Assembly (NCBI GenBank): GCA_964534625.1
Contig: CAZHRF010000058.1
Span: 1-13,329 of the forward strand
Length of the DNA stretch: 13,329 nt
Reading direction: 5' to 3'
Source of the DNA: an uncultured archaeon
Lineage (GTDB): Archaea > Asgardarchaeota > Heimdallarchaeia > Heimdallarchaeales > Heimdallarchaeaceae
Below, one piece after another: positions 1 through 13,177 of the stretch. The notes under the pieces were generated by a model. That model was not told the origin of the DNA, ran no database searches, and saw nothing but the letters and a program-made list of their open reading frames with translations. Position 1 is the first letter of the stretch. Each line of letters opens with the position of its first letter. The translations under genes were made by a program, and so were the position numbers.

Positions 1-83
1 TTCAACCCACAACTACACACAAACACGCCGACCCGTATGTCTTCGTTTTTTTCTGCTTCTACTGGTTTTGTTTCAGTTGTCAC
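1..83 (-). CDS. hdrA: 5' end of a third HdrA-family protein (partial, runs off the window)
   Basis: Manual translation from GTG at 83-81, which overlaps the TGA of the upstream ORF (GTGA), gives MTTETKPVEAEKNEDIRVGVFVCSCGL(N). This matches the HdrA N-terminal motif RIGVFVCHCGxNI seen in the other two copies. Confidence 0.85.
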   Translation of the reverse strand, partial: MTTETKPVEAEKNEDIRVGVFVCSCGL

Positions 84-1342
84 TGTGCATCACTCTTATA
101 TTCTTTTAGTTCTGGTATTTTATTCACAAAGTCTCGTATTTTCTTCATTGATCTTGCATTTTCAGCCAGATTAACTCGTTTTTGACCGAGAAATTCACTA
201 ACGACTGATGTCCAAGCAGCTGAGAACCCAGTATCTTGGTCAACTAATATTCTATTTCGTTTAATCGTGATAGCATCTTCTGGACAAGCTGTTGCACACG
301 CTCCACATAGCACACATACTTCTGTATCAATTCGTACGTGCTTTCCATCTCTTTCTATAACATTAATTGGACAGGACCATACACACTCTTCACATCGCTC
401 GGGACATTTGCTTTCATCCACTATGACATCTCCTGTAAATAATCGTTTTATAGGTACTGAATCAAATCCTATACAATGTTCTGGATCTACTATATGTGCT
501 GCAGGTACTGCTTGGGGGAATTTAAGATATATTGCTTTTCTTTTTGAGAATCCCTCATTATATTCACTTTCTACTATTGCTGGGCATACATCTACACAAT
601 CATCACAGATCGTACATTCGTCTTCTATTACATATCTTGGTTTTTTCTTTATTTTTACTTTAAAGTTCCCCACATACCCACCTACTTCTTCAACTTCACT
701 ATTTGTGAGTAAGGTTATATTTGGGTGTCGGCTAACCGCCACCATTTTAGGTGTAAGAATACATTGGGAACAATCAAGTGTGGGAAAAGTTTCAGCCAAT
801 TGAGCCATTTTCCCTCCAATTGTTGAATCTTTTTCTACTAGTGTCACTTTGTATCCAGAATCAGCTATATCCAGTGCTGCTTGTATTCCCGCTACTCCCC
901 CACCTATTACAAGTGCTTTTCTTTCTACGGGTATTTTTATTGGTGTTAATGGTTCAGCTTTTGATATTTGTTCTATTGCTGCTCTAATTATCCTAATTGC
1001 TTTACTTGTTGCTTCTTCAACATCTGATGTCACCCATGAACATTGTTCTCGTATATTAGCCATTTCAACTAAATATTTATTTAATCCTGCATCAACCGCT
1101 GCTGTCCTAAATGTATCTTCATGCATATCTCTTGAACAAGCAGCTACTACTACTCTATCCAAGTTGTACTCATTTATTGCATCTTTCAACATGTTTTGAC
1201 CAGGATCCGAACACATATACGGATTTGATTCACAAAATACTACATCAGGATGTTCTCTAATTGTATTAACAACTCTGTCTATACCGACAGTTTGAGCTAT
1301 GTTTCTGCCACAATGGCAAACAAAAACGCCTATTCTTGTCAT
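80..1342 (-). CDS. Chimeric HdrA-like protein: HdrA residues 1-292 fused to a 2x[4Fe-4S] polyferredoxin C-terminal module (FwdF-like); may be a deletion product
   Basis: aa 1-292 are colinear with the 652-aa HdrA (about 46 differences by hand count, ~84% identity) and contain VCHCG, NIREQCSW, GGGVAG, TFPTLDCSQC and CxxCxxCxxxCP. After HCIG the similarity stops, and the tail has CPERCEECVWSCP, CVLCGACATACP and SAAW. Confidence 0.85.
   Translation of the reverse strand: MTRIGVFVCHCGRNIAQTVGIDRVVNTIREHPDVVFCESNPYMCSDPGQNMLKDAINEYNLDRVVVAACSRDMHEDTFRTAAVDAGLNKYLVEMANIREQCSWVTSDVEEATSKAIRIIRAAIEQISKAEPLTPIKIPVERKALVIGGGVAGIQAALDIADSGYKVTLVEKDSTIGGKMAQLAETFPTLDCSQCILTPKMVAVSRHPNITLLTNSEVEEVGGYVGNFKVKIKKKPRYVIEDECTICDDCVDVCPAIVESEYNEGFSKRKAIYLKFPQAVPAAHIVDPEHCIGFDSVPIKRLFTGDVIVDESKCPERCEECVWSCPINVIERDGKHVRIDTEVCVLCGACATACPEDAITIKRNRILVDQDTGFSAAWTSVVSEFLGQKRVNLAENARSMKKIRDFVNKIPELKEYKSDAQ
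467..1342 (-). repeat. Diverged direct repeat of 2973..3848 (5' 876 bp of hdrA)
   Basis: Gap-free codon alignment with identical tracts at 819-861=3325-3367 (43 bp), 900-939=3406-3445 (40 bp) and 1028-1066=3534-3572 (39 bp). Confidence 0.95.
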
Positions 1343-1378
1343 CCTTTTTTCTTCCTTTTTCTACTTTTTATAATTTTA

Positions 1379-1488
1379 AATTAATCTTCTTTATTATGTC
1401 CATTCTTAAATGCCTTTTAACTTCATTATACCAAGGAAACAAGAACCTTTTTTTTATTATTGAGATTCTGTTCCATTAATAATCACAA
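1379..1488 (-). pseudogene. Probable decayed relic of the korD 5' region (alternatively a conserved cis-regulatory leader)
   Basis: 1456-1483 matches 6753-6780 at 24/28 nt. Weaker colinear similarity continues downstream (TTTCCTTGGTATAATG vs TTTTCTTGATAAAAAG; TTAAAAGGC vs TTAGAAAGGGC). In the korD frame it reads VIINGTESQ* versus FIINGTRSQK. Confidence 0.5.
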
Positions 1489-1526
1489 ATATTATACTTA
1501 AGTCGTTGAAGTCTTCATTAGCGCCA

Positions 1527-1534
1527 TTTATAAA
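1527..1534 (-). promoter_or_regulatory. Putative archaeal TATA box (TTTATAAA) for the chimeric hdrA/hdrA3 unit
   Basis: Consensus TATA box. It lies 44 nt from the 28-nt leader motif, nearly the same offset (43 nt) as the TATA box upstream of korD. Confidence 0.55.
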
Positions 1535-1655
1535 GTTATAGATGAGTATATGTTCCATAATTACACACCAGTTGAATTTGTTTTAAGTGAGTGGTAGAAA
1601 AGATCCGATAATATTCATGAGTAAGCTATATTATGCTTTAATAAATTGATTTCTT

Positions 1656-1685
1656 AAAAAAATACAAGAATGTTCTAATTTTTTT
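1656..1685 (-). terminator. Putative oligo-T terminator (A7...T7 imperfect dyad) for the kor-hdrA operon
   Basis: Minus strand reads AAAAAAATTAGAACATTCTTGTATTTTTTT. It is the first T7 run downstream of hdrA (1890) and abuts the mini-element. Confidence 0.45.
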
Positions 1686-1846
1686 ATGAACTACTCCACC
1701 CCAAGTGATGGAGTTTCCTGATTCATAGAAGCAACCTCAAAAGAAAAAGAATAACGAACTCTACGGCCAAATAAGTATAACAATTTACTTGTTATATTTC
1801 GCCATTCATCCCACCCCCAAGTGAGTGGGCATTCTGGCTAGGTAAG
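1686..1846 (-). mobile_element. Non-autonomous IS200/IS605-family miniature element (PATE/MITE-like), 161 bp, without tnpA or tnpB
   Basis: Minus strand: TTTAC|CTTACCTAGCCAG-AATG-CCCACTCACTTGGGGGTGGG-ATGAATGGCG (left-end hairpin) ... CTATGAATCAG-GAAA-CTCCATCACTTGGGGTGGAG-TAGT-TCAT| (right-end hairpin). The two subterminal imperfect hairpins are related and in direct orientation, with no terminal inverted repeats or target duplication. Guide/cleavage pairs AATG/TTAC and GAAA/TCAT fit IS608-type pairing rules. The left boundary could alternatively be 1841 (second TTAC). Confidence 0.85.
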
Positions 1847-1889
1847 GTAAATGAAACTCATTACATTTGGTAAATCTTTGCTAATTTTA

Positions 1890-3848
1890 CTATCTTACTT
1901 CCGATAACAATGCCTTTATCCTATTGCTTAAGGTTTCATAGGTTGAATTCCGTAATTCAATACTACCCGATGGACATGCTGCTACACAAGAACCACATCC
2001 TTCGCACAATGCTTCATTTATTTCTATTCTATCTGAATTGGCATTGAATGATATTGCATCATACGGACAAATATATGTACAGGTCATGCAAATTCCACAT
2101 GTTCTTTGATTTACTACTGCAACTATGGGATCACGTTCTAGAAGTTCAGCTGATAAGATTTCGAGTGCCATAGCTGAAGATCCAGAAGCTGAAGCGACGA
2201 CTTCAGGAATATCTTTTGGACCAGCTGCCGTACCAGCAATATAAACACCAGAAAGAGCCGTTTCTACAGGTTTAAGTTTTGCATGAGCTTCTTTTATGAA
2301 TCCAGTAGGATCAGAAGAGAGTTTAAGTAATTGAGCAATCTCTTTTGTACCTTCACTAGGAATAATTCCTGTTGCTAAAACCACCATATCAGCATGAATC
2401 TCAATTGTTTCTGCTGTAATAGTATTTACTCCCCGTACTAATACTTGATCTCCATCTTGCTGTAAATCTGAGATTTTTCCTCTAACAAACACAACTCTTT
2501 CTTGTTCTGTTGCGCGTTGATAAAACTCTTCATAATCTTTTCCTGCAGTACGCACATCTATGTAGAAATTATATGCCATCCCATCATGTACTAAATGTTT
2601 AAACTGTAAAGCATGTTTTGTCGAATACATACAGCATATTTTTGAACAATGAGGTAGATGTTTAGCAGGATCTCTAGACCCCGCACAATGTACAAACACT
2701 ATTGTTTTTACTAACTTACCATCAGATGGACGTCTTATTTCTCCTCCCGTTGGTCCATTAGAAGACAGTAATCGTTCAAACTGTAGCCCCGATATTACAT
2801 CAGGTATTGTTCCATACCCATACTCACCTATATTTTCTATTGAATATGTTTCATAACCCGTTGCCACTGTGATTGTACCATAGACCTCTTCAATTATTTC
2901 TGTTTTCATATCAAAGTCTATCGCTTCTCTTTCGCATGCTTCAGCACATTTACTACAAATAAGAGGATTTATTCCCAAGCAATCCTCGGGATCAATAATA
3001 TATGATGCAGGTATAGCTTGTGGGAATTTTATATATATTGCTTTACGTGGTGAAAATCCTTCATTATACTCACTTCTTACTGTAACAGGGCATACCTCGA
3101 CACAATCATCACAGATCGTGCATTCATCTTCTAGTACATACCTTGGTTTTTTCTTTATTTTTACTTTAAAACTTCCAACATATCCACTAACATCCTCAAT
3201 TTCACTATTTGTCAATAAAGTTATATTTGGGTGTCTACTCACCGCTACCATTTTAGGCGTAAGAATACATTGGGAACAATCAAGCGTGGGAAATGTTTCC
3301 GCCAGTTGTGCCATCTTTCCACCTATTGTTGAATCTTTTTCTACTAGTGTCACTTTGTATCCAGAATTGGCAATATTAAGTGCTGCTTGAATACCGGCTA
3401 TTCCTCCACCTATTACAAGTGCTTTTCTTTCTACGGGTATTTTTACTGGTATTAACGGTTCAGCTTTTGATACTTGTTCTATCGCGGCTCTAATTATTCT
3501 AATTGTTTTATCTGTTGCTTTTTCAGTATCTGCTGTCACCCATGAACATTGTTCTCGTATATTAGCCATTTCTACTAAATATTTATTTAATCCTCCATCC
3601 ACTACCGCTGCTCTAAATGTATCTTCATGCATGTCTTTCGAACAAGCAGCCACTACTACTCTATCTAGATCATGGTCTCTAATAGACTCTTTAACCATGT
3701 TTTGTCCTGGATCTGAACACATATACACATTAGATTCACAAAATACTACATCAGGATGGTTATTAATTGTATTCACAGCTCTTTCTATATCTACAGTTCG
3801 AGCTATGTTTCTGCCACAATGACAAACAAAAACACCTATTCGTGTCAT
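1890..3848 (-). CDS. hdrA: Heterodisulfide reductase subunit A family flavoprotein (FAD, multiple [4Fe-4S]), full length
   Basis: VCHCG, NIREQCSW, GGGIAG, TFPTLDCSQC, an inserted ferredoxin domain, VATGY, FERLL, HCAGSRD, CSKICCMYSTK, AGTAAGPKDI and a C-terminal 2x CxxCxxCxxxCP. The ATG overlaps the korC stop (ATGA, 3848-3845). Confidence 0.97.
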   Translation of the reverse strand: MTRIGVFVCHCGRNIARTVDIERAVNTINNHPDVVFCESNVYMCSDPGQNMVKESIRDHDLDRVVVAACSKDMHEDTFRAAVVDGGLNKYLVEMANIREQCSWVTADTEKATDKTIRIIRAAIEQVSKAEPLIPVKIPVERKALVIGGGIAGIQAALNIANSGYKVTLVEKDSTIGGKMAQLAETFPTLDCSQCILTPKMVAVSRHPNITLLTNSEIEDVSGYVGSFKVKIKKKPRYVLEDECTICDDCVEVCPVTVRSEYNEGFSPRKAIYIKFPQAIPASYIIDPEDCLGINPLICSKCAEACEREAIDFDMKTEIIEEVYGTITVATGYETYSIENIGEYGYGTIPDVISGLQFERLLSSNGPTGGEIRRPSDGKLVKTIVFVHCAGSRDPAKHLPHCSKICCMYSTKHALQFKHLVHDGMAYNFYIDVRTAGKDYEEFYQRATEQERVVFVRGKISDLQQDGDQVLVRGVNTITAETIEIHADMVVLATGIIPSEGTKEIAQLLKLSSDPTGFIKEAHAKLKPVETALSGVYIAGTAAGPKDIPEVVASASGSSAMALEILSAELLERDPIVAVVNQRTCGICMTCTYICPYDAISFNANSDRIEINEALCEGCGSCVAACPSGSIELRNSTYETLSNRIKALLSEVR

Positions 3849-4396
3849 TTTTTTACCTCTTTTGTATGATTTTTCCCTTTTTCAAATGCAATAAGGTTCT
3901 TCTCAACATATGCTGGTTTTATTTTTGCTTTAAGAGTTTGAATTATTGAATCTTCAGAAAATAGTTTTGAGTTTGCACAAATAAACCCTAACATGACTAT
4001 ATTCGCAAAAATTTTATTCCCCAGTGTTTCAGCTATTTTAGTTGCGGGGATTTTATGTATTTGTCGTGCCTTTTTAGCTCTATCATCTAACCGTACTAAA
4101 TTTTCTTCCAAAAACAAAATACCGCCTTCTTTTAGTTTGGGTATATATTTATCATACGCTTCTTCTGACATACTCACCAAATAATCTAGTTCCGTAGCAA
4201 GAGGATAATCAATCTCTTTCTCATCTATAACAATATCAGAGCTGCTAGCTCCCCCTCTGCTTTCAGGTCCATAACTTTGTGTCATTATAGAATTTTTCCC
4301 GTTTTCATACCGAGATATTGCTTCACCAACCAATCTCCCCATAAGTCCTATTCCCTGCCCGCCAAATCCACTAAATTTTACCTCAAGACGACTCAT
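3845..4396 (-). CDS. korC: 2-oxoacid:ferredoxin oxidoreductase gamma subunit
   Basis: SGFGGQG, SYGPESRGGAS, ANIVMLG and NLIAF motifs; 183 aa; operon context. Confidence 0.95.
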   Translation of the reverse strand: MSRLEVKFSGFGGQGIGLMGRLVGEAISRYENGKNSIMTQSYGPESRGGASSSDIVIDEKEIDYPLATELDYLVSMSEEAYDKYIPKLKEGGILFLEENLVRLDDRAKKARQIHKIPATKIAETLGNKIFANIVMLGFICANSKLFSEDSIIQTLKAKIKPAYVEKNLIAFEKGKNHTKEVKK

Positions 4397-4398
4397 TC

Positions 4399-5274
4399 TT
4401 ACAACCCCCTAGTTTTTGTTTTTTTTGCTATCTCTTGTATTTTTAGTAAGTTATCAGTTAATGTTGGTTTATCTTCAATATCCACAAATTTCCCAACGAT
4501 AATCGGTCCTTCTTTGTTGATGTCGGTTGTTTTAATATCAGCAAAATGCTTGATGACTGTTCTTTTCCTAAAATTCTCTAAAATTAAGCTCCCTTCTCTT
4601 AATTGATTCCTTCGTCCAAATGTTGTTGGACAAGAACTTAACACTTCAACAAAACTAAATCCATGTTTATTTATAGCCTCAACGAAAGAGTGTTTCATCC
4701 TTCTAACATCTAAAGCTGTCCATCTTGAGACATAAACTGCGTGTGTTGCTGCTGCTAATGATGGCAAATTGAAAGGCTCTTCAATTGTCCCATACGGTGA
4801 TGTTGATTGGTATTGCCCTATATAACTCGTTGGACCTACTTGTCCTCCAGTCATACCATAATTAAAATTATTAACACAAATAACTGTAATATCTGCATTG
4901 CGTCTAGCTGCATGAATGAAATGGTTACCGCCTATACTTGCTATGTCTCCATCCCCTGAAATTACAATAACCTTATTATCTGGATTAGTTACACTTAATC
5001 CAATAGCAAATGGGATCGCTCGTCCATGTGTAGTATGAAAAGAGTCGAAATTTAAATATCCTGCTATCCGTCCTGAGCATCCAATGCCCGATACAATAGA
5101 GATTGCATCTGAATCATACTTGGACTCTTTTATTGCTTCAATTAGGACATGTGTTATTGAACCAAGAGAACATCCAGGACACCAAATATGAGGTATTCTG
5201 TCTTGGCGTAAAAACTCGTCAGCTGGGTGTTCATGTGTTTCAATTAATTCATCTTTTATAATTTCTTCTGTCAA
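4399..5274 (-). CDS. korB: 2-oxoacid:ferredoxin oxidoreductase beta subunit (TPP-binding)
   Basis: WCPGC, SGIGC, HTTHGRA, GDGD...NN TPP motif, YGMTGGQ and CPT. The TTG start is 2 nt after the korA stop. Confidence 0.96.
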   Translation of the reverse strand: MTEEIIKDELIETHEHPADEFLRQDRIPHIWCPGCSLGSITHVLIEAIKESKYDSDAISIVSGIGCSGRIAGYLNFDSFHTTHGRAIPFAIGLSVTNPDNKVIVISGDGDIASIGGNHFIHAARRNADITVICVNNFNYGMTGGQVGPTSYIGQYQSTSPYGTIEEPFNLPSLAAATHAVYVSRWTALDVRRMKHSFVEAINKHGFSFVEVLSSCPTTFGRRNQLREGSLILENFRKRTVIKHFADIKTTDINKEGPIIVGKFVDIEDKPTLTDNLLKIQEIAKKTKTRGL

Positions 5275-5276
5275 AA

Positions 5277-6440
5277 TTAAACTCTCCTTTTTATTTCATC
5301 ATAAATTTCCTTTGGAGTATGAATAGATCCTCCGAGTTTGAACATCCCCACAACATTTGTCTTTCCATGTATTGTTCTTTCAACCTCTTTTGTTATTTGC
5401 CCATAATTCACTTCTGGTACAATTATTGCTTTACATTGGTCTGCAAGTTTTTGAATAAATTCATCTGGAAAAGGCCAAACAGTTCGCAATCTTAGAAAAC
5501 CAGCTTTAATGCCCTTTTCTCTCGCACGTATAACTGCGCCTTTTGCTGCTCGTGAACTTATACCAAAAGTTACTACTATGATTTCCGCATCAGTTAATTC
5601 ATATTTTTCCAGTTGGATTATTTTCTCTTTGTTTTTTCTGATTTTATCATTTATACGTCTGACATACTTCTCTTGTGCTTCAGCATTAATAACAGGATAT
5701 CCTCTTTCATCATGAGTTAATCCTGTTGTGATTACTTTATATCCTTCTCCAGCTGTAGCCATACGTGGTACAATGTCATTATCAATTAACTCATATGGAA
5801 GATACCCTTCTTTTGAGGAAGGTTTTTTTCTATTAACAATCTTAATTTCTTTTTTAGGTGGTATAACTAGTCTTTCACTCATATGACCAATAACTTCATC
5901 CATAAGAATAGTAACAGGCAAGCGATATTCTTCCGCAAGGTTAAAAGCTGTTATTGCTATGTCAAAACACTCTTGAACACTATTTGGAGAAACAGCTATA
6001 GGTTCATAATCCCCATGCGAACCATATCTTGTCTGCATAACATCTGATTGACCAACAAGAGTAGGTAAACCCGTTGAAGGACCTCCTCTTTGCACATTAA
6101 CTATAACACATGGTGTTTCTGTCATCATTCCCAATCCGATGTTCTCTAGCATTAACGAATAACCTGGTCCTGATGTTGCTGTCATACTTTTCCATCCTCC
6201 CCAACTCGCCCCCAAAATTGATGCTATAGAAGCTATTTCATCTTCAAATTGAATAAAATGTCCATTCACTTGAGGTAGACGAAGAGATATATGCTCTGCA
6301 GTTTCAGATGATGGTGTGATAGGATATCCTCCAAAAAATTTACATTCCGCAGCTATAGCTCCTTCTGCTACAGCTAAATTTCCAGAAGTAAAATATTCTC
6401 CAGTAAGAACTTCAGGTAAATCCAAAGAATTTTCATTCAC
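5277..6440 (-). CDS. korA: 2-oxoacid:ferredoxin oxidoreductase alpha subunit (start revised to GTG at 6440)
   Basis: GYPITPSSE, EDEIAS, ATSGPG and QRGGPSTGLPT motifs. The in-frame GTG at 6440-6438 overlaps the korD end and follows a purine-rich AAGGGGGAAAAG. The track start at 6536 would overlap korD by about 100 nt. Confidence 0.93.
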   Translation of the reverse strand: MNENSLDLPEVLTGEYFTSGNLAVAEGAIAAECKFFGGYPITPSSETAEHISLRLPQVNGHFIQFEDEIASIASILGASWGGWKSMTATSGPGYSLMLENIGLGMMTETPCVIVNVQRGGPSTGLPTLVGQSDVMQTRYGSHGDYEPIAVSPNSVQECFDIAITAFNLAEEYRLPVTILMDEVIGHMSERLVIPPKKEIKIVNRKKPSSKEGYLPYELIDNDIVPRMATAGEGYKVITTGLTHDERGYPVINAEAQEKYVRRINDKIRKNKEKIIQLEKYELTDAEIIVVTFGISSRAAKGAVIRAREKGIKAGFLRLRTVWPFPDEFIQKLADQCKAIIVPEVNYGQITKEVERTIHGKTNVVGMFKLGGSIHTPKEIYDEIKRRV

Positions 6441-6786
6441 CCATCTTTTCCCCCTTTTGATTAGAATTAAAAGAAGCTTCATCTGGCATTTCCAAGAATA
6501 TAGCAAATTCAGGACAGATAAGTTCACAAAAACCACAACTCGAGCAATTGGTAAAAGATTTATCTAGTTTGAGTTTAGGTGGATGATACCCTTTTTCATT
6601 TATATCTTCAGATTTCATAAGAATCTCTTCTGGACAATAATCAATACACCAGCCACATTCTTTGCATCTTTCCTTGATCAAGTATATCTTTGGTTTCGCC
6701 CTTTCTAAAAACTTTTTATCAAGAAAAGCAGGCCAACTTGGCTTTTTTCTCCATTTTTGAGATCTTGTACCATTAATAATAAACAA
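6433..6786 (-). CDS. korD: 2x[4Fe-4S] ferredoxin-like delta subunit of 2-oxoacid:ferredoxin oxidoreductase (start uncertain)
   Basis: CKECGWCIDYCP and CSSCGFCELICPEFAI, separated by the NEKGYHPP linker typical of KorD. First gene of the kor cluster. Only TTG starts are available in frame before the first Cys motif. Confidence 0.9.
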   Translation of the reverse strand: MFIINGTRSQKWRKKPSWPAFLDKKFLERAKPKIYLIKERCKECGWCIDYCPEEILMKSEDINEKGYHPPKLKLDKSFTNCSSCGFCELICPEFAIFLEMPDEASFNSNQKGEKMGE

Positions 6787-6822: not shown

Positions 6823-6830
6823 TATATAAA
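6823..6830 (-). promoter_or_regulatory. Putative archaeal TATA box (TTTATATA) of the korDABC-hdrA operon
   Basis: Consensus TATA box 37 nt upstream of the korD TTG. Confidence 0.6.
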
Positions 6831-7142
6831 TATAATGTTGATCTTATTGCACATAGTGTTTAATCAATGAATTCTTAAAACATTTGTCATAAAATTTAAA
6901 TTGCCATTTCTATATTTTACTTTTCTTTTTTCTCTCAGGTTTTACTACTTCCAAATTAAGAGAAAAAGTTAAGAGATTACCAATTAGAACACATCTATAC
7001 TATTCTATTTTATTATAGAGCTAATAGTAGCTCAACACAGGTTTTAATGACTATACTATAGTTTTAAATATGAAATGCAATCTCCGAAGTTCCTGATATC
7101 AATACAAATGAAAATCCATCCGTATGACAATTCTGGATCTTT

Positions 7143-7177: not shown

Positions 7178-8941
7178 TCAATTACTTTCATCTTCAATTT
7201 CTATATCCAGATATTTTTCTAGAATTCCTTTTAACCTTTGTTTTGTCACAATAAAGTCATCTGTTATTTCGCCATTCTGAAGACTGATTAATCTAAACCC
7301 TGGTCTTACTAAAGATAAATCATGAGTGCTCATTATTATTGTTCTGTCATATTTTACTGATGTCTCCATCAACAACGAGATAAGCTCTCTCGCTAGTCTT
7401 GTATCTAAATTAGCTGTGGGTTCATCAGCAAAGATTAATGGTGTATGTCTGGCTAAGGCAACAGCTAATGCAGCACGTTGTTTTTCTCCTCCTGAAAGCT
7501 CTGGCGGATACGCATCAAGTTTATGATAAATATTACATTCTTTGGCTATTTGCTCAACTTTTTCTTTACTTATTTGCTTATCATCATTGAATAACGACGG
7601 GATATACATATTTTCTCGTATAAGGTATTGATCAAGAAGATTGTTTACTTGACTAATCATTGCTATATTATAAAATCTAAATGCACTTACTTTATCTCTA
7701 TCCTTTTGAGTTATTTCAAAATCATTGACTTTAATAATACCCTCATCAGGTTTTTCTACCCCCGATAAAACATTCATCATTGTAGTTTTTCCTGCTCCCG
7801 ATTTTCCTGATATTACGACAAGTTGTCCTTTTCTAATATCATAAGATAATCCTTTTAATACCTCGTTCTCAAATCTTCCTGCTCGAAATGATTTTTTTAA
7901 GTTCTTTACATGAATGGCAATTTCTTTATGATCTTTTGGTATGAACTCTTGTTCTAGTATCGGTTGTACTTCTTTGAAAGATACCTTTCCTTCTCCTTCT
8001 CCTTGTCCTCTTTCTTTCAGATATTCCTCAGTTTTTTCCATCTCCTCATATACTTCTTCTCTTGTAACCTCGTCAGGATTAAAGATTACTGAAAATTTCT
8101 TTGAAGGATGAATTTCAAACTCAGTTATATGCTTAAATCCTCCAGAAGCATAAACTGCATCGGGTAATCGAACAAATTGAGAACTATCTATAACACTTTG
8201 TAGACTCGATTCTTGGGGTTTTAAGATAAAGTCCAGTTCATCTCGATCAAGATCAATATTTACACCCACCAAACGCCCATCTCTTATGATATAACTCTTT
8301 TTGAACGCATTTCTAAATCGTAAGTCATGGGTTACAACTAAAATTGATGTACCGTATTGGTCATTCAAATCTTTGAAAGTTGCTATAATATCATTTGTAT
8401 TTGCTGTATCTAGTTGTCCCGTTGGCTCATCAGCAAGGACTATTGAAGGTTTTTTCGACAATACCGTTCCTATCGATGTTCTAACAGCCTCTCCTCCTGA
8501 TATGTGTGTTACTCTATTATTGCGTATTTTCTTTATGTTCAATACTTCTAATAGTTCTTTCGTCTCCTTTTTCGCTTTTTCACGTGGAAAGTGCCGCATC
8601 TTCATAGGTAACATAATGTTATCTTCAACTGATAAATGAGCAAGCAGATTTTGATGGACAAACTGATTAAGTATCCCCATCTTTTCAAATCTAAATTTAC
8701 GCATTTCACGGTCATTTAAATCGACAATGTTAACATTATCTATGATAACTGAACCACCGCTAGGAGAGAGAAGTCCACTCAATATTTTGATAAGCGTACT
8801 TTTTCCTGATCCGCTTGGACCAATAACTGATGCTACTTCTCCATCTCTGACATAAAGATCGAGTCCTCTCAAAGCTGATGTTTTCACATCAGTCATTGGA
8901 TCATGATACACTTTAATTAGGTCTTTTGCTAGTATTCCCAT
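7178..8941 (-). CDS. ABC transporter ATP-binding protein with two fused LolD/MacB-type NBDs
   Basis: NBD1: GPSGSGKS, ISGGEAVR, VLADEPTGQLD, VTHD. NBD2: GKSGAGKT, LSGGEKQR, IFADEPTANLD, STHD. A ~110-aa linker separates them. Confidence 0.95.
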   Translation of the reverse strand: MGILAKDLIKVYHDPMTDVKTSALRGLDLYVRDGEVASVIGPSGSGKSTLIKILSGLLSPSGGSVIIDNVNIVDLNDREMRKFRFEKMGILNQFVHQNLLAHLSVEDNIMLPMKMRHFPREKAKKETKELLEVLNIKKIRNNRVTHISGGEAVRTSIGTVLSKKPSIVLADEPTGQLDTANTNDIIATFKDLNDQYGTSILVVTHDLRFRNAFKKSYIIRDGRLVGVNIDLDRDELDFILKPQESSLQSVIDSSQFVRLPDAVYASGGFKHITEFEIHPSKKFSVIFNPDEVTREEVYEEMEKTEEYLKERGQGEGEGKVSFKEVQPILEQEFIPKDHKEIAIHVKNLKKSFRAGRFENEVLKGLSYDIRKGQLVVISGKSGAGKTTMMNVLSGVEKPDEGIIKVNDFEITQKDRDKVSAFRFYNIAMISQVNNLLDQYLIRENMYIPSLFNDDKQISKEKVEQIAKECNIYHKLDAYPPELSGGEKQRAALAVALARHTPLIFADEPTANLDTRLARELISLLMETSVKYDRTIIMSTHDLSLVRPGFRLISLQNGEITDDFIVTKQRLKGILEKYLDIEIEDESN

Positions 8942-8947
8942 CTTTTA

Positions 8948-11900
8948 TCATTCCATTTGTGTAGGTGCATATTGCTCAAATTCTCTCCTAAGTATATATC
9001 TCATGTTCAGGTACAATATCAAAGGTATACCCATGAGAGCTATTAGTAGTAACGCCCAAGGATACACAACATATTGTGTATAGGCTGTTATACCATATTC
9101 AAGAAGACTTAACGTTCGTGGGATAACTAAAAAGCCAACTGTCGACCCGATTATCATAGCGGGTACAATTGCTGCTATGAAACTTTCAATGGTTGATAGA
9201 TTTATTATTGTATGTGCTTTAATGCCTACTTTTTTCATAATATCATGTTTAATCACTCGTTTTTCTAATATTTTAATGGCTGTTGTAACAGTTGAAAATA
9301 CCAGTACTACCAAGGAAACAACCATACTTAATATCAATTCTATGATGAATATATTATAGAGAGGGGTTTTGAGGTTGTCTTTAACATCTTCATGGCTTCT
9401 TAGAACTGCACTTTGTGTCATTTCAAACAAAGATTGTTTAACAGAATTTACATTTTGATTAGAGTTAACTTTGACAAATAAGAAATCATAAGTTAATATC
9501 CGTCTTGTAATAATATTCTCTATTTGTTCAAAACACTCTGCAGAAATTATAATCATTCTTTCATCATTCTCAACATCCTCTTCAAAAAAGAAAACGGGGA
9601 ATAACTCAAATGTATCAATAATCTCCACACGATAGTCCAATCCTAAATCTCTGTTTGAAAAACTTAATTCGTCACCTATTTCCTTGAAGTGTGTTCGTAA
9701 AACTTCTTGTGATACTATTATATTATCTTCTGTCAAATCATCCAACCCTTCCCATTTAAAGTTAGTTACTCTTTGTTGTGGTTGTTCTATAGTCGATAGG
9801 AAATGTGATTGGTTGATCACCAGCATTCTTACCCGTTCAAATATTCCTGCATATATGGTAAACATTCTTGCATGAGTGGCACTTTGAACATTAGATATTG
9901 CAGTTACCTCTTCAACTGAATATCCATAATCAGACCATTTTGGTACAAGTATATCAGATCCGTTTTGGAAATAAGCTTGTTGATCTAGCGCTTTCTCTTT
10001 TGAATAGGGTACAACAAACATAGGTATAAGTATTCCTACAACAAGCAAGAAGATAAGAGTAATATTTTCGAAATAGTTGATATCTTTAGCTATTTCTGCA
10101 AATATAAATGTCTGTTTGTTTTTCTTTCCTTTTGTCCATAAAAGATATCCCACTCCTCTCCATAGCATTGATAGAATTTTTATTGCTATAGGTAATCCAC
10201 CCAACAACGAAAATACTGCACCAGCTACAGTTAAAAATAGAAATATAGTAAATGTAGATATCCTACTCTGTTCAAAACTAAGAACAGCTTGATTATAGAA
10301 GTACAAGTAGGATACAACGCCCAATGTTAAAAAGAATAAATCTCTCCAACTTATCTGTTTTAGTAATTTCATAAATTTATTTGGAGATTTAATTACTTCT
10401 TTTTGGCGTCCTATTATCAATAATATTCTTGGTATGCTTATGATGAAAAGAACCAAGGCAACTAAAAGCATTTCTACAACCACATTTCCTACCACCAATT
10501 GTGTCTCTGTATTTCTGAAACTTATAAAACCATTAATACGAATCAGCGGGATTGCTGTTATGACAGCTAAACCAAAACTCACTATAGTCGCTGTAACAAC
10601 TTCAAATAGTCGTATACTGACATAAATGCTCATGATCTTTCTTCTCGAGACACCACGTGATTTTAGTATTTCTACCTCATTCTGATAGCTGGAACTAAAT
10701 AGTTCTGAGCTTTCAAAGATCATAAATATTGAGAGAACAATAGCAGGTATGGCAAAAACAACCAATCGTGTTTGATTGTTTAGATAGTAGTTATTAAAAT
10801 TTTGAAAGAAATTACTAATCTCTTCATAAAACATTAAAGTTGAGCTAGTATCGAAATCAAATGAAAAAGTTCTGCCTTCGATTAATTCTTGTTCCAAGAC
10901 CAATTCATTTCTTTCTTCTATCCTGAAACCTTCAAAATCCAGATGAAATTGATAGACTCCACGAACAACAAGATTTACTTTTGATGCACCGTTTAGTATC
11001 TCGAAGAAATTATCTGCGATAGTAATAATATCACGTCCTGCCATGGGTTTCAAAATGTCATTAGATTCTCCGAGGTAATTTGTTATTTTACGTACTTCAG
11101 CAAAATTAAGAGCAGAATATAATCCTACAATAGTAACATTACTAATATAATCGGGATCTTCATCTTGGACACCATCTCGTGTATATATTTGTAAAGTGTC
11201 ATTTACTCCTAATTCTGTTTTTCGAGATAAACGCCCACTAATTACCACTTCACTATCATTATGTGGTTCTCGTCCTTCATAAAGGAAAGAATCAAATAGT
11301 GCATTTGAGTTACGCGGTAAAGCCACTATTCCGTAGGAGAGTGTCACAACGTGATGAGGATCATGTATTTTTAAAGATGTATAGTAAGTTGATTGTAAGT
11401 CTACGATATATTTATCTAATATCATATCTTCAAATAAACTACTAATGTACTCTTCTGCTTCTTGATGATAATAAGCGTCAATTTCTGATCCATTACTATT
11501 GAAAGTCGTAACCATAGAAGCAGTTGGTATGTCATCTGAGAGTATATTATGTGATCTATAGTATGCCTTTATCATTGCAGATTCGGTTGATTGAGAGATG
11601 ATAAATGCAGAACTTAGCAAATATCCTGTAATAATAAATCCTAACAGGGTGAATATTGTTCTCTTTTTATTACTTGTCCAAATAATTTTAATGGTAGATA
11701 CAGCATTATAATAGAACCTTCTGATATTTAAGAAGAAGAGTTTAAAAGTTCCATAATCACCAGGTTCTTTACTGAACAGAAAAGCTAACAGTTTTTCCTT
11801 ATTTTTAAAAATCAAAAGCGGGATCCCAGCTAGACTTATAACTGCAATAACTATGGAAATTGATAATACAATCCAATGCTCTTTTAAATATTCTTTAATA

Positions 11901-13177
11901 ATATTGTACTCTGTTAGTCCAGTTAATACCGCTTCTATTTCTAAATCATAATTTGTATTTGCGAAAAGCACATTCGTATTTTCTTCTTTAAATGAAGTTA
12001 ACCCACTATTAATATAGGGTAGCAAATCTTGCGTTTTCATTGTTATATTATATGTAATAATGAAGTTAGTTTCACTCGCGAACATATTGTATGAGTTATT
12101 ATTTGTTGGATATTTAGTGGTAATAGTTCTAAATTTCCATGTGTTTTCATCAAAGAGCCCTTGATGAATAGATATGGTCCCATAAGAATTTTGTGTTTCC
12201 AAGTAGAATATTTCTCCATTCTCTGTTTTAATATATTTTGAATCAGTTATATCATTTTGAAACAAAACAGTTTGAGAATGTGCAGATAATTGCGTTTCAT
12301 TGAAACTGCCCCAATGTATAGATCTAGGAGTCACAAAGGAATATTTTAAATCATTATTTAAAGTTTCAAAATGGGTTTTTTTGACACTCTCAGAAGACAC
12401 AGCTGCAAACTCTTTATGATAAAAGGGACTTAAATGACCATCCTTCAATTGTCCAAAGCCCATTCCAAAGTTATCTTCCCAAAGCTCATAAACATACCAA
12501 ATATTATTTGCACTATCTACTTTAATATCAAGAATTTTTCTTCTTTGAAAATCGGAATAACCATTTTGATTATATGTCAAATTGTTAACTTCATATATTG
12601 TTTTAGATATAGCGTACCCCCTCATACCCCAAGCATGGGTAACATTCATTGTCATCATATTATCATGATCAAACTCTGCTCTGAATCTATGGACCATTCC
12701 ATTTTTAATTTGAAAGCCCATATACCTAACATAAGGTCTACTCTGAACTGCAATATAGTCAATCACATTTTGTCTAACAAGATCTTCTGTCCACCCATAA
12801 TAATAGTAAATTATGTCATTTGCTGTGTTAATAACACTATAAATAATTATTACACCACCTGTTTGGGATGCTTGTGCAATATGAAACTCAAGTTCATAAA
12901 CATCTTCATGTATTGTAGATATAATTGCAGTATTGTTAATATACCGTACATGTAACAAAACATTGTCTGTATTATTCAAAACATGGACAAACAAATGAAG
13001 GTCACCATTTGAGTCTATAATGGGTTGTGATGCTATTATTCCTTCAATATCAGCTGTATCAGGGGTAACAAACAATGGAAATTCTTTATAATCCGCTGAA
13101 ACTGCAAATTGGGAAAAACAGAACAGAATCACAATCACAAATACTATTACTATTAATTTTTTATTTTTTCTTAACAT
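8948..13177 (-). CDS. Large FtsX/MacB-like ABC permease with signal peptide, extra ~400-aa extracellular domain and two permease repeats
   Basis: Basic-plus-hydrophobic N-terminus (KKLIVIVFVIVILFCFSQFAVSA); NKKRT followed by a TM helix; MacB-like extracytoplasmic motifs (EGREP..DSEVVIS, LGVNDTL, IVGLY); FtsX signatures EVEILKSRGVSRRKI and HDIMKKVGIKAHTI; multiple TM segments; 6 nt from the ATPase gene. Confidence 0.9.
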   Translation of the reverse strand: MLRKNKKLIVIVFVIVILFCFSQFAVSADYKEFPLFVTPDTADIEGIIASQPIIDSNGDLHLFVHVLNNTDNVLLHVRYINNTAIISTIHEDVYELEFHIAQASQTGGVIIIYSVINTANDIIYYYYGWTEDLVRQNVIDYIAVQSRPYVRYMGFQIKNGMVHRFRAEFDHDNMMTMNVTHAWGMRGYAISKTIYEVNNLTYNQNGYSDFQRRKILDIKVDSANNIWYVYELWEDNFGMGFGQLKDGHLSPFYHKEFAAVSSESVKKTHFETLNNDLKYSFVTPRSIHWGSFNETQLSAHSQTVLFQNDITDSKYIKTENGEIFYLETQNSYGTISIHQGLFDENTWKFRTITTKYPTNNNSYNMFASETNFIITYNITMKTQDLLPYINSGLTSFKEENTNVLFANTNYDLEIEAVLTGLTEYNIIKEYLKEHWIVLSISIVIAVISLAGIPLLIFKNKEKLLAFLFSKEPGDYGTFKLFFLNIRRFYYNAVSTIKIIWTSNKKRTIFTLLGFIITGYLLSSAFIISQSTESAMIKAYYRSHNILSDDIPTASMVTTFNSNGSEIDAYYHQEAEEYISSLFEDMILDKYIVDLQSTYYTSLKIHDPHHVVTLSYGIVALPRNSNALFDSFLYEGREPHNDSEVVISGRLSRKTELGVNDTLQIYTRDGVQDEDPDYISNVTIVGLYSALNFAEVRKITNYLGESNDILKPMAGRDIITIADNFFEILNGASKVNLVVRGVYQFHLDFEGFRIEERNELVLEQELIEGRTFSFDFDTSSTLMFYEEISNFFQNFNNYYLNNQTRLVVFAIPAIVLSIFMIFESSELFSSSYQNEVEILKSRGVSRRKIMSIYVSIRLFEVVTATIVSFGLAVITAIPLIRINGFISFRNTETQLVVGNVVVEMLLVALVLFIISIPRILLIIGRQKEVIKSPNKFMKLLKQISWRDLFFLTLGVVSYLYFYNQAVLSFEQSRISTFTIFLFLTVAGAVFSLLGGLPIAIKILSMLWRGVGYLLWTKGKKNKQTFIFAEIAKDINYFENITLIFLLVVGILIPMFVVPYSKEKALDQQAYFQNGSDILVPKWSDYGYSVEEVTAISNVQSATHARMFTIYAGIFERVRMLVINQSHFLSTIEQPQQRVTNFKWEGLDDLTEDNIIVSQEVLRTHFKEIGDELSFSNRDLGLDYRVEIIDTFELFPVFFFEEDVENDERMIIISAECFEQIENIITRRILTYDFLFVKVNSNQNVNSVKQSLFEMTQSAVLRSHEDVKDNLKTPLYNIFIIELILSMVVSLVVLVFSTVTTAIKILEKRVIKHDIMKKVGIKAHTIINLSTIESFIAAIVPAMIIGSTVGFLVIPRTLSLLEYGITAYTQYVVYPWALLLIALMGIPLILYLNMRYILRREFEQYAPTQME

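Follow-up and report, generated by a model that had tools for sequence, protein, structure and literature searches.

Gene clusters that join a 2-oxoacid oxidoreductase (Kor), heterodisulfide reductase-type subunits (Hdr) and a fumarate reductase-like enzyme (Tfr) have already been noted in the literature, where they are known from genes alone. In tubeworm symbionts and in Thioflavicoccus mobilis, Rubin-Blum et al. (2019; PMC6315080) found korABCD and tfrAB intermingled with flxABCD-hdrABC, and they proposed a complex that shuttles electrons directly to the 2-oxoglutarate:ferredoxin oxidoreductase (OGOR) and to Tfr. Williams et al. (2021; PMC8542988) read a TFR-OGOR-fumarase-succinyl-CoA synthetase-Mvh-Hdr cluster in Candidatus (Ca.) Celaenobacter (Cloacimonadota) as H2-driven support of the reductive steps of the tricarboxylic acid (TCA) cycle. 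According to PMC7282089, which cites Koendjbiharie and van Kranenburg (2019), Pseudoclostridium thermosuccinogenes has a 'succinic acid operon' of the Flx-Hdr type that includes a novel fumarate reductase. Here we describe a korDABC-hdrA gene unit from an Asgard archaeon, found in a window of 13,329 nucleotides (nt) that constitutes contig C58 of a Heimdallarchaeaceae metagenome-assembled genome (MAG; 3.37 Mb, 120 contigs, 89.8% complete).

In methanogen super-assemblies, HdrA's inserted ferredoxin domain is the low-potential exit, docking the FmdF or VhuB polyferredoxins that feed formylmethanofuran dehydrogenase (PMC13518236). For an Asgard archaeon, Imachi et al. (2020; PMC7015854) proposed a confurcating, H2-evolving MvhADG-HdrABC that re-oxidises the ferredoxin from 2-oxoacid oxidation. 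Bifurcating modules of the HdrABC type also occur very widely in organisms other than methanogens, where the high-potential acceptor and the low-potential client are known for a minority of them. We propose, with a probability of roughly 0.6, that korDABC-hdrA makes up the promoter-proximal end of a conserved set of genes encoding Kor, HdrABC, an electron-input module and a fumarate reductase-like pair, and that this set has been split by rearrangement in the present genome.

Results

The kor genes and hdrA form one compact unit

All long open reading frames of the window are on the minus strand. Five of them follow one another with overlaps or 2-nt gaps, as the first-pass annotation of the window had stated, including the overlap of the hdrA ATG with the korC TGA, and a purine-rich ribosome-binding motif precedes each junction (protein lengths in amino acids, aa):

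6786..6433 (-), korD, delta subunit with two [4Fe-4S] clusters, 117 aa, TTG start, TGA stop
6440..5277 (-), korA, alpha subunit, 387 aa, GTG start at 6440, 8-nt overlap with the korD stop
5274..4399 (-), korB, beta subunit binding thiamine pyrophosphate (TPP), 291 aa, TTG start, 2-nt gap after korA
4396..3845 (-), korC, gamma subunit, 183 aa, ATG start, 2-nt gap after korB
3848..1890 (-), hdrA, complete HdrA flavoprotein, 652 aa, ATG overlapping the korC TGA as ATGA

The kor products show what is expected of a four-subunit KorABCD/OGOR enzyme: alpha-subunit domains, the TPP and Cys motifs of the beta subunit, and separate gamma and delta subunits. KorA matched the Pfam families POR_N (PF01855, 232 bits) and PFOR_II (PF17147, 83 bits). 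It exceeded the cut-off of the NCBIfam model NF006412 (556 against 411 bits) and stayed under that of NF007206 (397 against 579 bits), and its nearest solved chain was 1YD7, the alpha subunit of a 2-keto acid:ferredoxin oxidoreductase, followed by the 2-oxoglutarate synthase 8YS5. KorB carries TPP_enzyme_C (PF02775, 109 bits), a GDG(x24)NN motif at 107 and four Cys residues (32, 35, 66 and 215) that are candidate ligands of the proximal [4Fe-4S] cluster; its top NCBIfam match was the 2-oxoglutarate:ferredoxin oxidoreductase beta subunit, below the cut-off (243 against 364 bits). KorC matched POR (PF01558, 124.7 bits). KorD matched Fer4 families and, as its top NCBIfam model, OGOR_delta/OorD below the cut-off (45 against 125 bits), and its two CxxCxxCxxxCP motifs are invariant across 27 orthologues. 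Models specific for 2-oxoglutarate (OGOR/Oor) subunits thus scored best, yet all under their cut-offs. We regard korDABC as encoding a four-subunit 2-oxoacid:ferredoxin oxidoreductase of the Kor/Oor branch, and its genomic link to a fumarate reductase-like pair fits 2-oxoglutarate as the presumed substrate.

The HdrA of the window is full-length, its residues 3-650 aligning with chain a of the solved HdrA 8RVU (647 bits). It consists of an N-terminal Cys cluster domain, a thioredoxin reductase-like FAD domain with a GGGIAG motif at 147, and two ferredoxin domains of the 2x[4Fe-4S] kind, one inserted at ~243-305 and one C-terminal at 584-625. Three classical cluster motifs are present, and of its 28 Cys those that belong to clusters are invariant in the 27 orthologues. 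The residues that the first pass had singled out, together with the full length of the protein, were found again on reading the motifs and in the alignment: the Glu of FERLL (at 357), the Lys of CCMYSTK (at 405) and LAETFPT (at 182) stand opposite LERMI, CCMYIMK and LDKTFPT of 8RVU. Scores of 789 bits with the NCBIfam HdrA2 model NF040770 (cut-off 1100) and of 622 bits with NF041778 (cut-off 1400) leave the protein outside the equivalog of the methanogen CoB-CoM heterodisulfide reductase HdrA. It is classed here as a member of the HdrA family, a placing that does not imply reduction of CoM-S-S-CoB. Its nearest relatives (69-72% identity) are korC-adjacent hdrA products of other Heimdallarchaeaceae, and it is the only complete HdrA of its clade assembled in the MAG.

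The unit belongs to a recurrent gene set

We surveyed the 80 best HdrA relatives (52-72% identity) on contigs that represent one genome per species. These loci are related by descent and transfer, and the counts are descriptive, not statistical. They come from Heimdallarchaeia, Thermoplasmatota, Bathyarchaeia, Aminicenantes, Cloacimonadota, Bipolaricaulota and others. The korC gene lies directly 5' of hdrA in 48 of the 80 loci, and some kor gene is within 8 kb in 66. On the other side, mvhD is directly 3' of hdrA in 68, with hdrB counted in 64 and a TfrA-like flavoprotein in 55. Where korC directly precedes hdrA (54 loci measured), the spacing has a median of 4.5 nt and 18 overlaps occur. The adjacency for which the first-pass annotation had suggested such a survey is therefore not unique to this genome but recurs in many archaeal and bacterial phyla. 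A complete co-directional cluster of kor, hdrABC, an MvhD-type gene and Tfr-like genes was present in 46 of the 80 loci, and none of the 48 korC-hdrA loci was without mvhD or hdrBC nearby. The position of kor varies across phyla, being before hdrA, after tfrA or split around it.

Among the Heimdallarchaeaceae, 19 of the 20 loci retrieved have the co-directional kor-Hdr-Tfr-like cluster and the twentieth ends at a contig end; the relatives include Ca. Heimdallarchaeum aukensis PM71 and AB_125. Two layouts were seen. In the first, kor is followed by hdrA-mvhD-mvhG-mvhA-(hycI)-hdrC-hdrB and the genes for a 243-aa and a 555-aa protein, and this layout is found in G004 (Ca. Heimdallarchaeum aukensis, CP084166) and in G007, the two genomes that are closed. 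In the second, kor is followed by an MvhD-like gene, three FlxC/FlxB/FlxA-like genes with FrhB-like Fe-S, Fer4_22 and NAD_binding_1/FAD_binding_6 domains, and then by hdrA-hdrCB and the genes for the 243-aa and 555-aa proteins. The predicted electron-input module is the MvhDGA hydrogenase in the present genome and in Ca. Heimdallarchaeum, and FlxDCBA-like in other lineages. A literature search for the kor-Hdr cluster in Heimdallarchaeia returned nothing specific.

The remaining members are encoded on a second contig

In the source genome the kor-Hdr-Mvh-Tfr-like set is complete but spread over C58 and a second contig, C66. The gene order on C66 is aldehyde:ferredoxin oxidoreductase (AOR), a ferredoxin (Fd, 181 aa), a 538-aa gene, mvhD, mvhG, mvhA, hycI, hdrC, hdrB and the genes for a 243-aa SdhB-like protein and a 555-aa SdhA/TfrA-like flavoprotein. 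Five genes of the MvhAGD-HdrABC set (hdrB, hdrC, mvhD, mvhG and mvhA) thus all lie off the hdrA contig, whereas in relatives they are contiguous with hdrA. The genome's sole FlpD/MvhD match and one of its two CCG/HdrB loci are on C66, where MvhA keeps the NiFe motifs RICGVCPIPH and DPCLACATH intact and HdrB has two CCG motifs. The first-pass remark that hdrBC and mvhD are missing consequently holds for C58 only, since mvhD, hdrB and hdrC are on C66 of the same genome.

The 555-aa flavoprotein is nearest to TfrA, with 298 bits against NF004900 (cut-off 718 bits). A TfrAB in the strict sense, with a TfrA equivalog and with SdhB-like and CCG domains fused in TfrB, was not found at this locus, the 243-aa SdhB-like protein and HdrB being separate proteins. 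The pair may work like TfrAB at most, and fumarate is the likely substrate of the flavoprotein.

Reciprocal HdrA/polyferredoxin hybrids mark the break

Downstream of hdrA, C58 continues on the same strand to its end as follows:

1343..1889 (-), non-coding spacer, 547 nt, with a dispersed repeat, T-runs and a korD-like remnant
1342..80 (-), hybrid gene, 420 aa, HdrA residues 1 to ~292 fused in frame to the C-terminal two-cluster half and tail of a polyferredoxin
83..1 (-), start of an HdrA2-type gene, VTTETKPVEAEKNEDIRVGVFVCSCGL, first 27 codons, GTG overlapping the TGA of the hybrid gene, cut by the contig end

The unit had been thought to end after hdrA. This did not hold in that form: beyond the spacer the strand resumes with the hybrid gene and the HdrA2-type start, and three HdrA paralogues stand within 3.9 kb on C58. 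The HdrA part of the hybrid (1 to ~292) shows 84% aa identity to the window HdrA, and an exact look-up of the 420-aa protein in public assemblies returned no record.

The 538-aa gene on C66 (L061 2805-4421 (+)), directly 5' of mvhD, is the reciprocal hybrid, in which the N-terminal half of a polyferredoxin is joined to HdrA 297-652. Its 181-aa N-terminal part is unrelated to the N-terminus of HdrA and the protein has no GxGxxG, and its HdrA part is 86% identical. A fourth gene, on contig C9 (308 aa), joins the N-terminal part of the C66 hybrid to the ferredoxin tail of the window hybrid. If the two parts of HdrA are called L and R and those of the polyferredoxin L' and R', all four mosaics exist: L+R (hdrA), L+R' (C58 hybrid), L'+R (C66 hybrid) and L'+R' (C9 gene). 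All switch at the same codon (HdrA codon ~293-296, midway through the inserted ferredoxin domain), with sharp breakpoints and the frame kept. Together, the two hybrids hold all parts of one HdrA and one polyferredoxin, and they could form a split HdrA.

No common k-mer or sequence was found at the breakpoints of the mosaic junctions, and a simple assembly chimera was rejected as their source on this ground. The paralogous modules differ by 13-23% in DNA. The ratio of nonsynonymous to synonymous substitution rates (dN/dS) is 0.13-0.21 for the four module pairs (0.16-0.21 for hybrids against paralogues), so the hybrids are unlike decaying pseudogenes. A 241-nt tract is identical between hdrA (~2470-2710) and the C66 hybrid (L061 ~3600-3840), with flanks that are 79-91% identical, and it probably reflects gene conversion between the R paralogues. 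The other longest exact matches between modules are 43 nt (two N-terminal copies), 26 nt and a 55-nt overlap of contig ends. We take the mosaics to be real genes, as judged from these sequence comparisons.

L'R' belongs to a conserved polyferredoxin family whose full-length homologues are 37-54% identical. Its native operon in other archaea, seen in MAGs of Promethearchaeota and 'Woesearchaeota' (L147, L148), consists of the polyferredoxin, hdrA2::mvhD, hdrC, hdrB, a small protein, AOR and a Fer4_11 ferredoxin, an order that suggests an AOR-linked Hdr system. A search of 40 relatives found the polyferredoxin in the source genome only, and the hybrids are therefore lineage-specific.

Exactly the first 55 nt are common to C58 and C9, and likewise to C66 and C3, and C3 begins with the genes for the small protein, AOR and Fd. 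Contig ends of this kind look like the signature of a two-copy repeat (hdrA2::mvhD-hdrC2-hdrB2) that collapsed in a k=55 assembly graph and is missing from the bin. A 1.6-kb metagenome contig, L149, is 95% identical to the C9 paralogue of the C58 end and extends the third hdrA gene, which there reads on as a genuine HdrA with 77% identity to HdrA2::MvhD fusions. L149 was the only match in a metagenome scan with the C-terminal part of the hybrid as the query, and it is too short to reach C66. The remainder of the HdrA2-type gene is absent from the MAG through the collapse of the repeat, as presumably are hdrC2 and hdrB2.

The most economical order would be korDABC, hdrA, spacer, [L R', hdrA2::mvhD, hdrC2, hdrB2, AOR, Fd, L' R], mvhDGA, hycI, hdrCB, tfrBA, in which C58 leads through the repeat to C66, a pairing that we infer from the graph ends. 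It could have arisen if the polyferredoxin operon, as a circularised copy, entered a second hdrA copy by a single crossover at about codon 295. Recombination of that hdrA copy with a polyferredoxin gene probably brought in the whole operon of polyferredoxin, hdrA2::mvhD, hdrC2, hdrB2, AOR and Fd.

The spacer keeps traces of the second hdrA copy's surroundings. A 39-nt remnant like the 5' end of korD lies at ~1447-1483 (32 of 39 positions matching 6742-6780, korD codons 3-15; E 3e-6 in a small search), and the final 25 nt of korC are kept before the ATG of the hybrid gene. Together, the korD remnant and the korC tail suggest that the whole kor-hdrA unit was once tandemly duplicated, with later loss of the kor genes from the second copy. 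In a blastn of the spacer against the source genome, pieces of it were found on at least 25 contigs. They include a short dispersed repeat (~1686-1851, directly after hdrA) with CACTTGGGG-type hairpins, whose copies are 76-100% identical and which looks like a miniature mobile element.

A second Mvh/Hdr cluster of the relatives contains an HdrA of ~1120 aa (L056 5892-9254; G010, G012, G019, G020, G022) with a GltD/NfnB-like module (Fer4_20 and Pyr_redox_2) inserted at ~residue 294, the place where the C58 and C66 hybrids switch; in G005, G016 and G021 its equivalent is split into two genes. These proteins were considered as equivalents of the hybrids and rejected, the insertion being GltD/NfnB-like and resembling R' only weakly, in ferredoxin motifs, and L' not at all.

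The split of the kor-hdr cluster, the reciprocal HdrA/polyferredoxin hybrids and the three HdrA paralogues within 3.9 kb are specific to the source genome, and the apparent minimal Kor-HdrA unit is probably due to an insertion in this lineage together with the fragmentation of the assembly.

Predicted docking of KorD on HdrA's inserted ferredoxin domain

HdrA and KorD were folded together, and for each of them the alignment comprised 27 rows of orthologues taken from loci linked to kor. The model scored 0.71, and the best of three controls 0.00. This mark was reached by 58 of 80 solved complexes and by 2 of 110 mismatched pairs, which are rough counts obtained with our own alignments. The runs agreed in at least 63% of contacts, with a partner pLDDT (predicted local confidence) of at least 67. 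The predicted interface comprises HdrA residues 254-256, 265-267, 291-300 (inserted ferredoxin domain), 349 and 366-377, and KorD residues 18-29, 50, 52 and 82-86. A multimer prediction had been among the checks suggested in the first pass, on the analogy of the coupling of Hdr to Fwd in methanogens; the model passes its controls and places KorD on the inserted ferredoxin domain, in keeping with that analogy. It supports binding of KorD to HdrA as a prediction.

Upstream region

A 391-nt AT-rich gap separates korD from an ABC ATPase gene, and it contains the following feature:

6823..6836 (-), TATA-like box TTTATATA, candidate operon promoter, ~40 nt 5' of the korD start, read by eye

Further 5' are a gene for a 1409-aa multi-pass membrane protein (13177..8948 (-)), which had no Pfam or NCBIfam match, and, 6 nt after it, a gene for a 587-aa protein (8941..7178 (-)) with two ABC ATPase domains of the LolD/FtsE/MacB type. 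The two look like an unusual ABC exporter pair. An Rfam scan of the window found no family.

Discussion

A functional link between Kor and HdrA, which the first-pass annotation had put forward, is supported by the recurrent adjacency (48 of 80 loci), by the median spacing of 4.5 nt and by the predicted complex. After the rearrangement, kor-hdrA would stand as its own unit and mvhDGA-hycI-hdrCB-tfrBA would follow the reciprocal hybrid on C66; the kor-linked hdrA presumably still serves Mvh, HdrBC and Tfr. MvhAG would oxidise H2 and pass the electrons through MvhD to the flavin (FAD) of HdrA, where bifurcation would take place. The high-potential electron would run through HdrC/HdrB to the SdhB-like/TfrA-like pair, reducing fumarate to succinate, and the low-potential electron would leave through the inserted ferredoxin domain to KorD, for the reductive carboxylation of succinyl-CoA to 2-oxoglutarate or for general ferredoxin reduction. 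The net reaction would be 2 H2 + fumarate + succinyl-CoA + CO2 -> succinate + 2-oxoglutarate + CoA. Potentials are -414 mV for H+/H2, +33 mV for fumarate/succinate and about -520 mV for the 2-oxoglutarate couple. With such textbook values, we estimate about -66 kJ/mol for the reaction under standard conditions, and we favour the reductive, bifurcating direction. SucCD, a class I fumarase and three glutamate dehydrogenases are encoded elsewhere in the genome, and therefore both the reductive and the oxidative direction would be metabolically connected.

Methanogens follow the same logic with diffusible carriers. There, Tfr reduces fumarate while oxidising CoM-SH and CoB-SH, Mvh-Hdr re-reduces the heterodisulfide and yields reduced ferredoxin, and Kor uses the ferredoxin to make 2-oxoglutarate. 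We tentatively suggest that Kor, Hdr, Mvh and Tfr might be joined in a super-assembly that, like the methanogen Hdr-Fwd assembly, sends the low-potential electron into succinyl-CoA carboxylation without free ferredoxin and the high-potential electron to fumarate, in Asgard archaea and in many uncultured anaerobes. In this lineage, the reciprocal hybrids might in addition provide a working split HdrA that is connected to a second Hdr module.

The conserved set points to fumarate as the acceptor and to 2-oxoglutarate synthase as the direct client of an HdrABC-type module. If this is true, both of the hard reductions of the reductive TCA branch would be driven by H2 or NADH. The set also bears on the electron balance of Asgard archaea, and the predicted docking of KorD on HdrA offers a concrete interface.

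Several points weigh against the conserved, split set and its proposed direction. The C66 mvhD is translationally coupled to the 538-aa hybrid that lacks an FAD site, not to the full hdrA. The alternative pairing of contigs, C58 to C3 and C9 to C66, matches the graph equally well. The TfrA score of the 555-aa flavoprotein is below its cut-off. As to the model, its pass may reflect memory of the HdrA-polyferredoxin complexes already solved (7BKB, 8RVU series), or the resemblance of any small ferredoxin to the partners in them; unrelated proteins rather than other ferredoxins served as controls; KorABC, which lay outside the model, may cover the surface of KorD that faces HdrA; and the strongest predicted contacts use an N-terminal stretch of KorD that bacterial orthologues lack. 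The preference for the reductive direction comes from thermodynamics alone, and the three glutamate dehydrogenases, along with the syntrophic amino-acid lifestyle proposed for Asgard archaea (PMC7015854), would suit the oxidative one.

The same gene set may also work with no Kor-Hdr complex, as co-regulated enzymes linked through free ferredoxin, the gene order then reflecting co-expression of the reductive TCA branch. Soluble ferredoxin is the usual partner of Kor enzymes, the variable gene order across phyla is typical of co-regulated rather than obligately assembled subunits, and the model can pass through likeness to the solved complexes. The korC-hdrA spacing (median 4.5 nt, overlaps in 18 of 54 loci) suggests stoichiometric co-translation, however, and the model, with 0.71 against 0.00 for its best control, places KorD at the known exit of low-potential electrons. 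We consider the absence of a complex possible but somewhat doubtful.

It is unlikely, in our view, that the set runs as an oxidative confurcation, in which electrons from KorD (2-oxoglutarate, glutamate fermentation) and from succinate oxidation by the Tfr-like pair would reduce the FAD of HdrA, and MvhAGD would release H2 to a syntrophic partner. In its favour, three glutamate dehydrogenases are encoded, phyla with a fermentative or syntrophic way of life (Cloacimonadota and Aminicenantes, for example) commonly have the cluster, and Imachi et al. proposed a confurcating Asgard MvhADG-HdrABC (PMC7015854). By the same textbook potentials, however, this direction costs about +66 kJ/mol at standard state and is feasible only below ~0.3 Pa H2, which is under typical syntrophic levels, and the published readings of the cluster favour the reductive direction (PMC6315080; PMC8542988).

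An artefact of assembly or binning, with a plain kor-hdrA-mvhDGA-hdrCB-tfrBA in the true genome, would account for contig breaks at the locus in a 120-contig MAG of 89.8% completeness and for the 241-nt identity between the two C-terminal copies of HdrA. It is very unlikely, given that the modules are 13-23% apart with no other exact match above 55 nt, that the breakpoints lack shared sequence and fall at the same codon of four genes with the frame kept, that all module pairs are under purifying selection, and that in a k=55 graph the contig ends look like those of a clean repeat with two copies. Most improbable of all is the self-sufficient Kor-HdrA module of the first-pass annotation, bifurcating or confurcating without HdrBC, MvhD or another donor module: the spacer with its mobile element-like repeat and T-runs may make kor-hdrA a separate transcript, and the C66 mvhD is not coupled to the window hdrA, but according to the HdrABC-MvhAGD structures HdrA by itself offers neither a medium-potential donor nor a high-potential acceptor a site, none of the 48 korC-hdrA loci shows such a module, the partners are encoded in the genome, and the local isolation is explained by the lineage-specific rearrangement.

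Comparison with known systems

The earlier statement that no characterised complex of this composition is known has to be qualified, since Kor + Hdr + Flx/Mvh + Tfr clusters have been described as probable functional units (PMC6315080; PMC8542988). The P. thermosuccinogenes operon resembles the present set in a Hdr-linked soluble fumarate reductase proposed to bifurcate, and differs from it in being driven by NADH.

Like methanogen MvhAGD-HdrABC (5ODC, 8RVU), the present system has an HdrA that aligns over its full length, with the cluster and FAD motifs, the Glu of FERLL/LERMI and the Lys of CCMYxxK, and homologues of MvhD, MvhG, MvhA, HdrC and HdrB are encoded in the genome. Unlike it, all subunits score under the NCBIfam cut-offs for the methanogen enzymes, and LAETFPT replaces LDKTFPT. 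As HdrCB is followed by the SdhB/TfrA-like pair, the acceptor of Hdr is probably not CoM-S-S-CoB here.

In the Hdr-Fmd/Fwd super-assemblies (Methanospirillum hungatei, 7BKB; the 8-MDa assembly of Methanococcus maripaludis, PMC13518236), as would be the case for KorD in our model, HdrA's inserted ferredoxin domain feeds a bound [4Fe-4S] protein of a CO2-fixing enzyme with no free ferredoxin. The acceptor here would be a TPP-dependent 2-oxoacid oxidoreductase, not formylmethanofuran dehydrogenase, and the adaptor would be the two-cluster KorD in place of an 8- to 12-cluster polyferredoxin, through a contact that is predicted only.

With the cluster of Ca. Celaenobacter the locus shares the Mvh (group 3c) type of set; that cluster is bacterial and includes fumarase and SucCD, whereas in the source genome these are encoded elsewhere. 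The cluster of Rubin-Blum et al. likewise brings together a four-subunit OGOR, a Tfr-like fumarate reductase and HdrABC with an MvhD-like subunit, and its Flx-type version occurs in other Heimdallarchaeaceae and in Aminicenantes. The present set differs from it in that a MvhDGA [NiFe] hydrogenase takes the place of the FlxABCD NADH dehydrogenase as the input, in its Asgard host, and in that the cluster has probably been broken by an insertion.

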